A DNA stretch of 64,000 nt from Alphaproteobacteria bacterium (GCA_041917755.1 JAYRWY010000016.1:37932-101931); one strand, 5' to 3'. Shown: positions 7,527 to 41,741, counted from the first letter of the stretch. The notes: generated by a model from the sequence alone, not told the origin. Translations and numbers: made by a program.

Positions 7527-8735
7527 TTAAGCAGCAGCGCGCAGCTCTGACTTGGCGGTGGCAAATGCCCACTCGATCCAAGGCAACAGAGCCTGAACAT
7601 CTGATGTTTCAACCGTGCTACCGACCCAAACGCGCAATCCCGGTGGGGCATCGCGGTATGCGTTTGCATCAAGTGCCGCGCCTTCTTTTTCTAAAAGGCC
7701 GTTAACACGCTTGGCAAAGGCCGCACGGCCTTCGTCATTAAGCTTCAGATATTCTGGGTCATTAAAGACAAAGCACACAGATGTGGTCGAACGTGTTGCT
7801 GGGTCACTTGCCAAGAAATCAACCCATGGCGTGCGTTCAATCCAGTCAGCCAATACTTTGTAATTGGCCTGATTACGCTCGACCATGCCCTTACAGCCGC
7901 CGATGGATTTAACCCAGTTTAATGCATCCAGTACGTCTTCAACGCACAACATGGATGGGGTGTTAATCACTTCACCGGTGAAGAAGGCTTCATTGACTTT
8001 GCCCTTCTTGGTAATGCGGAAGATTTTTGGAATTGGCCAGCTTGGCGTATTGGATTCAAGACGCTTGATAGCGCGTGGGCTCATGATAATCATGCCGTGC
8101 GCAGCTTCACTGCCCAACACTTTCTGCCATGAGTATGTTACAACATCGAGCTTATCCCATGGTAATGGCATGGCGTATACAGCCGATGTCGCATCGCAGA
8201 TGGTCAACCCTTCGCGGTTATCGCTAATCCAGTCACCATTTGGAACCTTTACGCCAGATGCCGTACCGTTCCAGGTAAACACAATATCATGCGCAGGGTT
8301 TGCCTGCTTCATATCGGGCAATTGACCGTAGGCAGGAACAAATTTGCGGGCATTGGGAACTTTTAGCTCATCGATGATATCGACAACCCAGTCTTTACCA
8401 AACGCTTCCCATGCAAATACATCAACGGGGCGTGAACCAAGCAAGTTCCACAAGGCCATTTCAACCGCGCCGGTATCTGAACCTGCGGTGATGCCAATCT
8501 TGTAATCCGCAGGTATCCCGAGCGTTTCACGCGTCAGGTCAATAATCTGCTGGAGTTTAACTTTCGCTTCTTTAGCGCGGTGGGAACGACCAAGCAAAGC
8601 ACCCTTGAGTGCCTCAAATGTCCAACCCGGGCGCTTGGCGGTAGGTCCACAGGAAAATCCCGGGTTTTTAGGCTTTTGCGTCGGTTTGGATGCGTTTGTC
8701 GTCATTGTGTTTGTGTTCACTGCCGTGTTTGTCAT
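7527..8735 (-). CDS. serC: Phosphoserine aminotransferase
   Basis: Alphaproteobacterial-type SerC with N-terminus ...KPKNPGFSCGPTAKRPGW and a PLP-fold body. It sits immediately upstream of serA. The start could be the internal Met at 8705. Confidence 0.85.
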   Translation of the reverse strand: MTNTAVNTNTMTTNASKPTQKPKNPGFSCGPTAKRPGWTFEALKGALLGRSHRAKEAKVKLQQIIDLTRETLGIPADYKIGITAGSDTGAVEMALWNLLGSRPVDVFAWEAFGKDWVVDIIDELKVPNARKFVPAYGQLPDMKQANPAHDIVFTWNGTASGVKVPNGDWISDNREGLTICDATSAVYAMPLPWDKLDVVTYSWQKVLGSEAAHGMIIMSPRAIKRLESNTPSWPIPKIFRITKKGKVNEAFFTGEVINTPSMLCVEDVLDALNWVKSIGGCKGMVERNQANYKVLADWIERTPWVDFLASDPATRSTTSVCFVFNDPEYLKLNDEGRAAFAKRVNGLLEKEGAALDANAYRDAPPGLRVWVGSTVETSDVQALLPWIEWAFATAKSELRAAA

Positions 8736-9734: not shown

Positions 9735-10841
9735 CTACACATTAAAACGGAAATGGCAGATATCCCCGTCATTCATCACGTATTCTTTGCCTTCCATACG
9801 CAGCTTACCGGCATCGCGGCATGCCGCCTCCCCGCCTAGCTTGATAAAGCTATCGATATCGATAACTTCGGCTTTGATGAATCCTTTTTCGAAATCGGTA
9901 TGAATAACCCCTGCCGCCTGCGGCGCTTTGGAATTACGCTTCAATGTCCATGCATGGGTTTCTTTTGGCCCCACCGTAAAGAAGGTAATGAGGTTGAGGA
10001 GCGCGTAACCTGCGCGAATAATCCGGTTTAACCCCGGTTCATTCAATCCCATGCTGGAAAGATATTCCTTTTGCTCTTCTGGCGTGGCCAATTGCGACAC
10101 TTCAGCTTCAATCGCAGCAGAAATTACTACGGCTTGGGTGTTCTCTGCTTTGGCGCGCTCGAATACTTTGGCTGAATGCTGATTGCCATTGGCCGCTGCA
10201 CTTTCTTCGACATTACATACATAAAGCACTGGCTTTGCGGTAATCAGTTGCAGATTTCTGAAATGCGGCTCTTGCGCTGCCGTCAATGTGCCAATTAATT
10301 GGCGTGCGGGCTTCCCGTCTTGAAGCAGCTTCAATGCCGCTTCAATCACTTCCATCTGCGTTTTGGCTTCCATATCACCCGATTTGGCCTTTTTGGTAAT
10401 GGCGTTCAAACGCTTTTCCAGATTATCCATATCGGAAATCATCAATTCGGTATCCACCGTCTCTGCATCACGAATGGGGTCAACCGAACCTTCAACGTGG
10501 GTGATATCCCCATCTTCAAAACAACGTAAGACATGGATGATGGCATCAACTTCACGGATAGTTCCAAGGAACTGGTTACCAAGGCCTTCCCCCTTGCTCG
10601 CACCGCGCACAAGTCCTGCTATATCCACAAACTCTAATTGGGTTGGAACAACCTTCACGGAATTGGCAATCTTGGCCAATTGTTCGATACGTTCATCCGG
10701 AACAGCCACACGGCCTGTATTCGGTTCAATCGTGCAGAATGGATAGTTTGCTGCCTGTGCAGCCTGCGTGCTGGTCAGCGCGTTAAATAAGGTCGACTTA
10801 CCAACGTTTGGCAAACCCACAATTCCACAATTAAAACCCAT
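9735..10841 (-). CDS. ychF: Ribosome-binding ATPase YchF (Obg-family GTPase)
   Basis: MGFNCGIVGLPNVGKSTLFNALT P-loop, a TGS C-terminal domain and typical length. Confidence 0.93.
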   Translation of the reverse strand: MGFNCGIVGLPNVGKSTLFNALTSTQAAQAANYPFCTIEPNTGRVAVPDERIEQLAKIANSVKVVPTQLEFVDIAGLVRGASKGEGLGNQFLGTIREVDAIIHVLRCFEDGDITHVEGSVDPIRDAETVDTELMISDMDNLEKRLNAITKKAKSGDMEAKTQMEVIEAALKLLQDGKPARQLIGTLTAAQEPHFRNLQLITAKPVLYVCNVEESAAANGNQHSAKVFERAKAENTQAVVISAAIEAEVSQLATPEEQKEYLSSMGLNEPGLNRIIRAGYALLNLITFFTVGPKETHAWTLKRNSKAPQAAGVIHTDFEKGFIKAEVIDIDSFIKLGGEAACRDAGKLRMEGKEYVMNDGDICHFRFNV

Positions 10842-10918
10842 AAGACGTTCTCTTTATATATGTAAGATGAAAAGTGCCGCTAAGTTAGTAAGGTCCCGTT
10901 TCAAGCACAAGGCCTACC

Positions 10919-11500
10919 TTAAGCGCTCACCAACTTATTGATATAATCGCTGTGCTTGGCATTTAACAACAAAGGCAGGTGCTCGGCTGATTTTTGCAGC
11001 AAGGCTTCCAGCCAGCCACGCTCGGCCTTGGCAAAGTCCGACAACACATAATTAGAAACTATTTCTGACTTATCAGGCGCACGCGGGTCAGGATGGCCAA
11101 TGCCAAGGCGCACGCGCCAATAATTCTGCCCCATATGCTCATCAATTGATTTAATACCGTTATGCCCGCCTGCCCCGCCGCCCTGCTTGATTTTTACTTT
11201 GGCAGGAGCCACATCCAGCTCGTCATGAAATACAAAAACATTACCAAGCGGGATTTTATAAAACTGCGCAGCAGCCTGTACGCTACTGCCGGATAAATTC
11301 ATATAGGTCTGCGGCTTAAGCAGAATGATTTTATCATCCACACCCGCGACACTACCCTCAGATATCTCGGCCTGAAACTTTTTTTTCCATGGTGAAAAAG
11401 AAAAATGGCGGTGGATCTCATCCACCGCCATAAATCCAATGTTGTGACGATGTTGCTGGTATTTCGAACCGGGGTTCCCAAGACCAACAAGTAGCCACAT
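10919..11500 (-). CDS. pth: Peptidyl-tRNA hydrolase
   Basis: MWLLVGLGNPGSKYQQHRHNIGF signature. 193 aa. Confidence 0.93.
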   Translation of the reverse strand: MWLLVGLGNPGSKYQQHRHNIGFMAVDEIHRHFSFSPWKKKFQAEISEGSVAGVDDKIILLKPQTYMNLSGSSVQAAAQFYKIPLGNVFVFHDELDVAPAKVKIKQGGGAGGHNGIKSIDEHMGQNYWRVRLGIGHPDPRAPDKSEIVSNYVLSDFAKAERGWLEALLQKSAEHLPLLLNAKHSDYINKLVSA

Positions 11501-13726: not shown

Positions 13727-13760
13727 TCGGCTGTACATTCAAATAGCGATAAGCGTTTTT

Positions 13761-13796
13761 AAAAAACACTGCTGCACATCGGCAGTGTTTTTTTAT
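13761..13796 (+). terminator. Intrinsic terminator after rpsT
   Basis: ACACTGCTG-cacatc-GGCAGTGT hairpin followed by TTTTTTTAT. Confidence 0.7.
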
Positions 13797-14603
13797 GCCT
13801 GAATTTTTTTATATGACTGTATTTTATGCAAGTGTTGCAGAAAAAATCTCGCAACTGCAAAAAAGTTCATCACAAAAACTAATCAAAAAGTCTAAGAAAA
13901 AAATTCTGCGTTTCATCCATCATCCACAACACCCCGTTTCATCGGGCAAGAAAGATTTTTGGAATTCTGTCAACGTGAAATTTTATCAAACGCAGCGGTT
14001 TAGATAAAAATTTTTGTTCTCGCTTTTGTCCCCTTGCAGGATGCAGAGCGAATGGTCTAAGGTCATTTCTGTAAGCACGGTGAGTTACAAAAATAACGCC
14101 GCAAAATGATAACCATCATGATGCAAATTATTTTTTAGCTGATAAAAAACGAAACGCTTCTGCTAAAAACGTTTCAAATTTTTTATGGCTCTCATCGCTC
14201 TTTCAAAAAAATGTTTGCCTGATTAGGTTCTAAGAACTACCGTACCAAAAACCAACCATTTGGAACGTTCTACAATTTGTGCTTTTAGGGCCTTCACTTG
14301 AAGGGACCCACATGACAACGTGAAGACCTATCGATCGATAGTCGTCATCGCCTCTTGGAAAAAAAGCCAGTCGTATGATGTTTCGATCTATGATGAGGTC
14401 CACACTATGCACGCAGTTCGGCTTATCCAATCGTCCGCTTCCATCTCGAAGAGACCTGCCGAACAAAATTGCGAGCAACCGTTGTCATCTCATTCTCCCT
14501 GCCATTAAAAATTAGACGTTAGTCAATAACGCTACTCATACCCGAAACCGGGTTCAGTCTTTTGTTTGCTTTTGCCTGAATACATAAGTTGGAAGAAATA
14601 AAT
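13797..14603 (+). promoter_or_regulatory. Long AT-rich rpsT-dnaA intergenic region. It holds the dnaA promoter and leader, weak DnaA-box-like sequences, and is a possible (unproven) origin-proximal region.
   Basis: About 800 bp without a credible CDS. Near matches to TTATCCACA are TCATCCACA at about 13923 and TTATCCAAT at about 14425. There are A/T tracts. No clustered perfect DnaA boxes. Confidence 0.3.
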
Positions 14604-40840: not shown

Positions 40841-40872
40841 AAAGCCCCGCAAGCAATTGCGGGGCTTTTTTT
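40841..40872 (+). terminator. Intrinsic terminator after pnp
   Basis: AAAGCCCCGC-aagcaatt-GCGGGGCTTTTTTT. Confidence 0.85.
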
Positions 40873-40928
40873 GTCGTATTAAAGTTTTTTATTCGGATTA
40901 GCGCCTACTTGCGCTATTTTATATTGCG

Positions 40929-41741
40929 ATGAACAAGTCAGAAGAACATTGGCGTTGGAATGCAGACCCCGTTTGGCATTACTTTTGCTCCATGCAATAT
41001 GAAGCGGCTCGCAGTGAAGCGAGCACTAATGACTTTATGCGATACCACCATATTCGCTCATGCATATATTTTGCTGTAGGAACAGTTGAATCTTTTTTAA
41101 ATTTCCAGTTCCGCCAACACAAACAAAAACTTAACACGCCAGAGAACCAAATACTAAAAACGTTAAAAGACACAAAACTTCCTGATAAAATAAGCAAGTG
41201 GCCCTCAGAAATGTGCGGACATGATATCGTTTTTGAAAAAAACTTTGATGAAGTCTTCCTTCTATACAAAAATATAAGAAACGAAATCACACATCCAAAA
41301 CGTAAAGACCATTCTATTTATTTGGAACTAGATAAAGCAGAACTAAATATTCTAATTGATGCTGTAGCAAAAGGCCTTGTCTCAATTTATGAAGGAATAT
41401 CACAGCCATTTCCATATTGGGTGCTAGGCTGGAATTATGTAGGATTGAATGGAAATCCTGCTTATCCATTTTTATCAAATAACATAAACGGGTTTGTACC
41501 ATCTCTAAGAAATATGGGATTTTCTGGCAAAAACTTAGATATACCAGATTTATCTTGGGATAAAAAATATATGAAAAACATTGACGATTATAATGCGCTT
41601 AAATCAGCATTAGATTCTTGCCCACTTGATATTGAACCATATTGGAAAGATTTTCCTCAAAAACCTCGTTTAACTAGAAAGTGGTGGGATCATAAAATTA
41701 TATATGAAGATATCGAAAAGCATCATATTAAAATGCAATGA
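40929..41741 (+). CDS. Hypothetical protein with a HEPN-like R-x4-H motif (LYKNIRNEITHPKRKD). Encoded in an AT-rich islet, possibly Abi-like.
   Basis: GC is about 36%, against about 50% for the flanks. 270 aa. The central motif R-N-E-I-T-H matches the HEPN R[NDH]xxxH consensus. Its stop overlaps the next gene's start (ATGA). Confidence 0.45.
   Translation: MNKSEEHWRWNADPVWHYFCSMQYEAARSEASTNDFMRYHHIRSCIYFAVGTVESFLNFQFRQHKQKLNTPENQILKTLKDTKLPDKISKWPSEMCGHDIVFEKNFDEVFLLYKNIRNEITHPKRKDHSIYLELDKAELNILIDAVAKGLVSIYEGISQPFPYWVLGWNYVGLNGNPAYPFLSNNINGFVPSLRNMGFSGKNLDIPDLSWDKKYMKNIDDYNALKSALDSCPLDIEPYWKDFPQKPRLTRKWWDHKIIYEDIEKHHIKMQ

Follow-up and report, generated by a model that had tools for sequence, protein, structure and literature searches.

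Just past the strong terminator of pnp in an alphaproteobacterial genome, the DNA turns AT-rich for the length of a single gene, which ends on the first codon of a TauE/SafE-family permease gene. How this gene came to lie there, and what its 270-aa product might do, are the questions addressed here. The original prediction, made from the sequence of the locus, had proposed a gene inserted into the TauE leader and encoding a HEPN-type RNase. The stretch of DNA analyzed, referred to below as the window, is 64,000 nucleotides long, and the features on which the argument rests are as follows.

38699..40819, + strand: pnp (polynucleotide phosphorylase), a 706-aa ORF; left host anchor of the insertion site
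40841..40875, + strand: intrinsic terminator of pnp; stem at 40841-40868 (12 bp, GC-rich, 4-nt loop), then a T-run; host sequence
40876..41737, + strand: inserted foreign segment of about 0.83 to 0.86 kb; GC content 0.33 to 0.36 throughout; without counterpart in relatives
40899..40916, + strand: small hairpin TAGCGC-ctactt-GCGCTA, followed by TTTTAT; within the insert, 12 nt 5' of the ORF start codon
40929..41741, + strand: HEPN-like gene; 270 aa, ATG start; member of a rare unannotated family
40929..41399, + strand: predicted HEPN domain, N-terminal and all-helical (aa 1-157)
41277..41294, + strand: putative catalytic R-x4-H motif, R117-N118-E119-I120-T121-H122, at the end of the third core helix
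41400..41738, + strand: C-terminal Trp/Tyr-rich domain (aa 158-270)
41738..41741, + strand: ATGA overlap of the TauE start codon and the ORF stop codon
41738..42484, + strand: TauE/SafE-family permease gene (Pfam TauE, E = 1.3e-30); right host anchor

The one-gene islet is evident from composition. The 270-aa ORF has a GC content of 0.344, whereas pnp has 0.509, TauE 0.478, and the whole window 0.492; the ORF value is the minimum among 1264 ORF-sized windows (z = -4.75), and its GC3 is 0.277, compared with 0.51 to 0.58 in the neighboring genes. The pnp terminator that precedes the islet has stem arms that are 100% complementary in the repeat and terminator scans. Position 40876, earlier given as the start of the element, approximates the beginning of the post-terminator leader, whereas the start codon is at 40929, 60 nt past the pnp terminator. 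In a scan of the window, neither a promoter nor a ribosome-binding site could be assigned convincingly to the HEPN-like gene. The small hairpin upstream of it may be an operator, an attenuator, or a second terminator; homologs show no conserved hairpin of this kind in their upstream regions, and the corresponding spacers of the two relatives (loci L024 and L026) described below contain no counterpart.

Insertion between pnp and TauE

Near-identical AMP nucleosidase proteins bear names that point to an uncultured alphaproteobacterium as the host. Occupied and empty sites were compared flank by flank. The gene order truB, rpsO, pnp, TauE, amn, ftsY is common to the window and to L024 and L026, and in both relatives the site is empty: pnp and its terminator are followed by about 40 bp and then by TauE, with no ORF between. 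The pnp product of L024, an orthologue with the RNase_PH/PNPase/KH/S1 Pfam domains, is 92% identical to that of the window; the TauE orthologues of both relatives share 66% protein identity with the window copy, and a hairpin and T-run equivalent to the pnp terminator are kept in both. Relative to these sites, the pnp-TauE junction of the window holds about 830 extra bases. As had been predicted, the extra DNA is thus a genuine insertion (about 0.83 kb), bounded by the pnp terminator and the start codon of TauE, whose native leader it has replaced. The right junction coincides with the TauE ATG or immediately precedes it, and the left one is approximate (about 40869 to 40900). At the insertion site we found no target-site duplication, terminal inverted or direct repeats, attC site, integrase, or tRNA.

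The overlap of the ORF stop codon (TGA, 41739-41741) with the TauE start codon (ATG, 41738-41740) had been taken for translational coupling. The overlap is confirmed; however, TauE of L024 and L026 likewise begins with ATGAC, so that the stop codon of the inserted ORF is supplied by the host gene. Because ATGAC is the native start context of TauE, the overlap is structural, and coupling of the two genes is only what we infer from it. TauE is now presumably expressed through the insert or from inside it.

An empty spacer in two relatives might also mean that the gene is ancestral to the lineage and was lost from them. The junction is spanned by just these two relatives, both fairly distant (TauE, 66% aa identity), and in the closest relative (amn, 98.8% identical) the contig ends inside TauE, short of the junction. 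Nevertheless, we regard such a loss as highly improbable, given that the gene deviates so strongly in composition (z = -4.75, GC3 of 0.277), that the nearest homologs are just 56% identical and come from unrelated phyla, that the terminator-leader-TauE arrangement is intact in both relatives, and that the homologs form AT-rich islets in all other hosts. The window and its relatives provide a clean occupied/empty pair for the acquisition of a single gene beside an essential operon, in the course of which the downstream host gene, TauE, lost its own leader.

Size and distribution of the family

The 270-aa protein has no match in Pfam, PADLOC, NCBIfam, or PHROGs, permissive thresholds included (E ≤ 1 for Pfam-A and E ≤ 10 for PADLOC), and a phmmer search of the protein against PDB sequences returned noise only. 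The Abi_2/AbiD-F, AbiU2, and Apea families, named earlier as possible homes for it, gave no Pfam (E ≤ 1) or PADLOC (E ≤ 10) match, and this part of the original prediction is not upheld. In a collection of 5.8 billion proteins, 48 homolog clusters were found, none of them with a Pfam domain; an exhaustive search of 1.84 billion representatives yielded 115 representative clusters at E ≤ 1e-3. The family is rare (11 of about 185,000 species genomes) and its hosts are scattered over Alpha-, Beta-, Gamma-, and Deltaproteobacteria, Balneolota, Omnitrophota, and Acidobacteriota. Members are 255 to 280 aa long. The gene is AT-richer than its flanks in 17/17 and 18/18 loci, by up to 30 GC points. It was not found in 2.9 million viral contigs (IMG/VR), 50,697 phage records (INPHARED), and 72,556 plasmids (PLSDB).

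The N-terminal half resembles HEPN domains

The R-N-x3-H motif on which the HEPN proposal was based is present in the ORF as LYKNIRNEITHPKRKD, with the R117 codon at 41277-41279 and the H122 codon at 41292-41294. R117 and H122 are invariant in an alignment of 48 sequences, and they remain so in a broadened set, whose 29 sequences are more divergent; position 118 is N, D, G, or H in both. The motif consensus in the 48 sequences is R-[NDGH]-E-x-T-H-P, and three further residues (E54, N58, and R62) are near-invariant in the long second helix. An AlphaFold2 model built on the family alignment is confident (pLDDT of 93.9, pTM of 0.91). In it, residues 14-156 form a helical bundle with the all-alpha, four-helix up-down core of the HEPN superfamily; the motif ends helix 104-121, and helix 139-156 comes next. 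HEPN domains are described as bearing the R-x4-6-H motif in their third core helix, ahead of the fourth, and the residue next to the Arg is usually polar; the position seen here agrees with this description.

Structural searches point in the same direction. The top Foldseek matches are HepT/SO_3166 toxins, with a probability of 0.8 to 0.9 and a target TM score of 0.52 to 0.59 at E-values of just about 0.4. The best domain-length matches of the N-terminal half are HEPN toxins and HEPN domains, and only HEPN domains are covered from end to end as targets. When the family profile was compared with PDB sequences, Csx1-Crn2 came first at a below-significance E-value of 0.07; R117/N118/H122 fall on its R401/N402/H406, and the last helix is aligned as well. 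These three Csx1-Crn2 residues constitute the catalytic R-X4-6-H motif (PMC11317161). The HEPN-like family differs from Csx1-Crn2 in lacking a CARF domain and any CRISPR context.

Proteins of a ~195-aa sister family have a core in common with the HEPN-like family (hhalign, 99.4%, E = 1e-21) and carry identical motifs (VExFLNxxxR, KLxxWP, and LRNxxxH). Individual members of the sister family align with Pfam HEPN_RiboL-PSP at a sub-threshold E-value of about 0.014. A profile search with the sister family recovered 38 relatives, all of them unannotated, and reached no annotated HEPN protein.

Taken together, the fold and the active-site signature of a HEPN domain are very probably present in aa 1-157. 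The HEPN identity proposed earlier thus stands as far as the motif, the confident fold, and the structural matches go; it does not extend to a significant sequence or profile match with any recognized HEPN family in Pfam, NCBIfam, PADLOC, or PHROGs. Resting on fold, motif, and sub-threshold alignments, the assignment is supported but not proven, and by sequence membership the protein is outside every named HEPN family tested.

The C-terminal half is a separate, structurally unmatched domain

Most of the invariant positions of the family (Y163, W164, W168, F189, M215, P246, W252, and W253) are found in aa 158-270, within which the motifs PFPYWxLGWNYVG and PRLTRRWWD stand out. In the AlphaFold2 model, this region (aa 157-270) has few and short helices and strands. 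The earlier remark that the C-terminal ~120 aa resemble nothing recognizable is corroborated: the 113-aa domain has no structural match among solved structures in the PDB. C-terminal-only matches in the search of 1.84 billion representatives are all ≤161 aa, and the domain is therefore not seen in another architecture. The ~195-aa sister family is devoid of it. A two-domain organization, with a HEPN-type bundle at aa 1-157 and an autonomous aromatic-rich domain at aa 158-270, is well supported.

Genomic context of the homologs

We surveyed the surroundings of about 33 non-redundant loci. No neighbor family recurs among the 246 neighboring ORFs, as judged from the 25 most frequent neighbor families in each scan; the commonest Pfam families occur 2 to 5 times and are generic. 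The annotated neighborhoods of the homologs contain no MNT nucleotidyltransferase gene. Rfam searches for an RNA partner beside the homologs gave only terminator-hairpin noise, no tandem repeats were found, and there is no conserved flanking sequence around them. The family is a standalone gene, with no conserved partner or antitoxin; what the original prediction had noted at one locus thus holds for the whole set.

The expectation that homologs would be found in defense islands is borne out in part. Many of them adjoin defense or mobile genes. One has a type III CBASS operon and a PIN gene beside it (L017), others are placed directly 3' of a Type ISP/IIG restriction-modification enzyme on the same strand (L006/L043 and L049), and another, in L005, is flanked by the hsdS and hsdM genes of a type I system, where remnants of IS200 are also present. 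Further neighbors are Abi_alpha, two genes off (L003); Drt4 (L029); PDC-S60 (L036); a 1507-aa helicase matching the PDC-S37, Hhe, and Mokosh models (L033); an AAA_15/AAA_21 ATPase with IS200 (L015); and ImmA and Xre-MbcA genes (L012). One homolog is directly past the integrase of a P4-like element (L014), and another is within an integrase-bearing element (L022). In the window, on the other hand, the gene sits among housekeeping genes, outside any defense island, and the same kind of single-gene islet among housekeeping genes is seen in L001, L019, and L020. The recurrence beside defense and mobile genes is a qualitative association, made without a matched background.

The homologs of Vibrio coralliilyticus and Aliifodinibius salipaludis are single-gene cassettes lying between attC repeats in a chromosomal integron array, as judged from repeat families. 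The L008 cassette belongs to an array with more than 20 VCR-type repeats and is flanked by copies at 9836-9972 and 10789-10927; the L007 cassette is flanked by repeats at 1733-1858 and 2686-2813. The L006 homolog is probably a further integron cassette. On the flanks of the window ORF, whose stop abuts TauE, no attC-like element or repeat was found. The unit by which the gene spreads is very small and, in some hosts, is an integron cassette of one gene.

Proposed function and alternatives

Weighing these observations, we incline, with some reservation, to the view that the gene encodes a horizontally acquired, self-contained single-protein HEPN defense nuclease, a reading whose mechanistic steps are drawn by analogy from characterized HEPN enzymes. 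Two copies of the protein would pair through their HEPN domains, and the two R-x4-H motifs would then form one composite RNase site able to cut RNA without metal ions. In uninfected cells the enzyme would be latent. With neither an antitoxin nor a partner gene accompanying the family, the enzyme would have to be silenced by its own structure, and the C-terminal aromatic-rich domain, which is outside the catalytic center, is the likely regulator or sensor. A cue derived from infection might switch the nuclease on; candidates are a nucleic acid, a nucleotide product, a phage protein, or the loss of a neighboring restriction system. Cleavage of tRNA or another RNA would then stop translation and abort the infection. 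In characterized HEPN enzymes, the cut is most often made in tRNA anticodon loops. There are precedents for defense by one HEPN protein (ApeA, DARNA, and HepS), and Esos is a HEPN-like integron cassette. More tentatively, the C-terminal domain could be a previously unseen fold acting as an in-built sensor that binds a phage-derived cue and allosterically opens the site of the HEPN dimer; we would not put this at even odds. On this reading, the HEPN-like family and its ~195-aa HEPN-only sister family would make up a new defense family.

Other functions can be envisaged for the same protein. It might be a non-nuclease helical bundle whose R/H pair serves ligand or nucleotide binding or regulation, and thus be unrelated accessory cargo. 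We consider this unlikely: Arg, the polar residue next to it, and His are conserved as in catalytic HEPN motifs and in the expected helix, the motif is aligned on the catalytic residues of Csx1, only HEPN domains are covered end to end as structural targets, and the context is repeatedly defense related. Were the domain a nuclease of the HepT/MNT-like or RnlA-like kind that is orphaned or degenerate and has lost its antitoxin, it would be a selfish addiction or stabilization module. Such a module could, for example, stabilize integron arrays and have no immune role. HepT toxins are indeed the best structural matches, toxin-antitoxin modules are the commonest recognizable systems in chromosomal integron cassettes, and genes of toxin-antitoxin type are found near some loci (Xre-MbcA and ImmA in L012, DUF4160/DUF2442 in L006, and TumE in L023). 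Yet neither MNT/nucleotidyltransferase nor any other listed family recurs in the ~33 non-redundant loci, there is no RNA-antitoxin-like repeat, and the protein is twice as large as HepT, with its extra 113-aa domain conserved throughout. Moreover, only self-inhibition would allow an intact toxin whose active site is invariant to persist unopposed. That the gene stands alone in ~33 loci, always with the conserved C-terminal domain, weakens the orphan-toxin explanation, which we think quite unlikely.

The protein might instead guard a restriction-modification enzyme in the manner of PrrC/RloC, remaining latent on that enzyme and being freed when a phage anti-restriction factor disables it. The prrC gene is located inside a type Ic restriction-modification locus, and the homolog between hsdS and hsdM (L005) and those that directly follow a Type ISP/IIG gene in the same orientation (L006/L043 and L049) recall this arrangement. 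PrrC has also been cited as a HEPN toxin that is inhibited by protein-protein interaction (bioRxiv 10.64898/2026.02.22.705581). However, most loci, the window included, have no restriction-modification genes nearby, and such adjacency is also expected from plain defense-island clustering. PrrC and RloC combine an N-terminal ABC-type ATPase with a C-terminal HEPN domain, whereas the 270-aa protein, which has no Pfam match, has its HEPN domain at the N terminus and lacks the ATPase domain. A guard role is, in our judgment, very unlikely.

Relation to known HEPN systems

A major class of bacterial immunity is taking shape around single-protein HEPN nucleases (ApeA, DARNA, and HepS), and in these three the interesting biology resides in the noncatalytic, infection-recognizing domain. 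The HEPN-like family is a compact case, in which a minimal HEPN domain is joined to a 113-residue domain without structural relative. Should the protein prove active, the known repertoire of sensor folds would gain a new member, and the restraint of HEPN enzymes in the absence of an antitoxin could be studied with a protein that is small and easy to express. If the sensor reading is also true, a protein of ~270 aa, short enough for an integron cassette, would be among the smallest complete sensor-effector immune proteins. Many HEPN defense candidates already exist; what is plausibly new here is an unannotated single-protein candidate with a structurally unmatched accessory domain.

HepT/SO_3166 toxins (PDB 5YEP, 7AE2, 7BXO, and 8XDJ) are the closest in structure, at a sequence identity of 7 to 12%. 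HepT, however, is about 130 aa long and always paired with an AMPylating MNT antitoxin, whereas members of the HEPN-like family have 255 to 280 aa and no MNT neighbor.

In its logic, DARNA (formerly PD-T7-3) of E. coli comes closest. The absence of any PADLOC match, in a library that we take to include PD-T7-3 models, indicates no detectable sequence relationship between the two proteins. DARNA is likewise one protein without a partner gene (bioRxiv 10.64898/2026.02.22.705581), with its HEPN domain at the N terminus (aa 1-159, compared with aa 1-157 here) and R117-x4-H122 at the same positions, possibly by coincidence. Its noncatalytic C-terminal domain senses the trigger through the aromatic residues F368 and W406 and controls tRNA anticodon cleavage; that domain is a 297-aa Pds5-like helical repeat, while the one described here is a 113-aa mixed domain of no known fold. 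DARNA assembles into a dodecamer and is triggered by ssDNA to which phage SSB is bound, but neither feature need apply to the HEPN-like family.

ApeA and HepS are also standalone HEPN proteins that sense infection and cleave the tRNA anticodon (bioRxiv 10.64898/2026.01.26.701840; PMC13043305). ApeA is activated by deoxydinucleotides and HepS by a phage tail-tip protein, in both cases allosterically and at a distance from the catalytic center, and both are found in defense hotspots and prophages. In ApeA, the HEPN domain is C-terminal (HEPN_ApeA, residues 335-583) and preceded by large N-terminal and middle domains, in contrast to the N-terminal HEPN domain of the HEPN-like family; neither ApeA nor HEPN_Apea was matched in Pfam or PADLOC, provided that those libraries include such models. 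HepS is prophage borne, whereas the HEPN-like family was not found in the phage collections searched.

The closest parallel in genomic lifestyle is Esos of V. cholerae, a validated single-gene integron cassette that has a HEPN-like domain only, was missed by DefenseFinder, and has a growth-arrest phenotype. The broadened family profile found members in Photobacterium and Plesiomonas and no V. cholerae protein. The likeness to Esos is thus one of description: two homologs of the HEPN-like family are also single-gene cassettes in chromosomal integrons.

Integron cassettes and other possibly mobile contexts of the homologs

Homologs of the AT-rich, HEPN-like ORF inserted between pnp and TauE occupy integron cassettes at two loci from other organisms, and probably at a third.

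Homologs in integron-type contexts
L008:9836-10927, Vibrio coralliilyticus ATCC BAA-450: single-gene homolog cassette between attC repeats, chromosomal integron array
L007:1733-2813, Aliifodinibius salipaludis: single-gene homolog cassette between attC repeats, chromosomal integron array
L006:9930-11010: homolog, probable cassette, with short palindromic elements

L008 carries more than 20 VCR-type repeats over 17 kb, and L007 eight repeats of about 125 nt over 9.8 kb. At L006, five short palindromic AAC...GTT elements flank same-strand ORFs, which include a Type ISP restriction-modification gene, and this locus is probably an integron array too.

Two further homologs lie among duplicated sequences of other kinds. 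On a human gut metagenome contig (L057:1770-4286), two 189-bp direct repeats, 94% identical and 2328 bp apart, enclose a homolog together with an oppositely oriented ORF of 222 aa. The GC content of this homolog is 0.287, versus 0.589 in its flanks, and the repeat-bounded segment resembles a small integrated element whose ends are duplicated. In an Omnitrophota metagenome-assembled genome (L005:8600-11500), the first 40 nt of an hsdM gene (MSENEIVQKVWNYC...) are found in three copies (at 8628, 9895, and 11425) around a homolog and an IS200 fragment, an arrangement suggestive of repeated rearrangement within this type I restriction-modification locus.

Sister family and a family subgroup

A sister family of approximately 195-aa proteins (P0129, P0141, P0146, P0152, and 38 relatives; alignments A3 and A4) has the HEPN-like core in common with the homologs, as well as the motifs VExFLN..R, KLxxWP, and LRNxxxHF. 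Its members, which carry no annotation whatever, lack the C-terminal domain and end in LHxWxGxxP. Within the homolog family itself, a subgroup (P0040, P0041, P0043, P0044, P0046, and P0047) has an additional C-terminal extension of about 70 aa (columns 310-386 of A1, the alignment of 48 homologs) with conserved cysteines in the pattern GCKLxWAVV...C..F...KA.YI.R.

Surroundings of the inserted ORF

Features in the window and in a related genome
36302-37249 (+): 315-aa ORF immediately 5' of truB, GC somewhat low (0.40-0.47)
41670-41698 (+): sigma-70-like site (TTAACT, 17 nt, TAAAAT) in the 3'-terminal part of the inserted ORF
13727-14588: AT-rich intergenic patch from rpsT to dnaA, minimum GC 0.358
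L026:6167-6628 (-): additional 153-aa gene between amn and TauE, no Pfam domain

TauE, whose own leader is gone, could be driven from the sigma-70-like site about 40 nt 5' of its start, such sites being in no excess over the shuffled expectation in this region.

The 315-aa ORF has no Pfam match (best E value, 0.26). In L024, a related genome with an empty pnp-TauE site, the equivalent place holds a different, oppositely oriented ORF of 122 aa, so there may be a second site of variation here. The 153-aa gene of L026, another genome with an empty site, is absent from both the window and L024; the TauE neighborhood is therefore variable on both sides in this clade.

Besides the inserted gene, the rpsT-dnaA patch is the sole strongly AT-rich patch in the window; its possible identities include the dnaA promoter and a replication-origin region.
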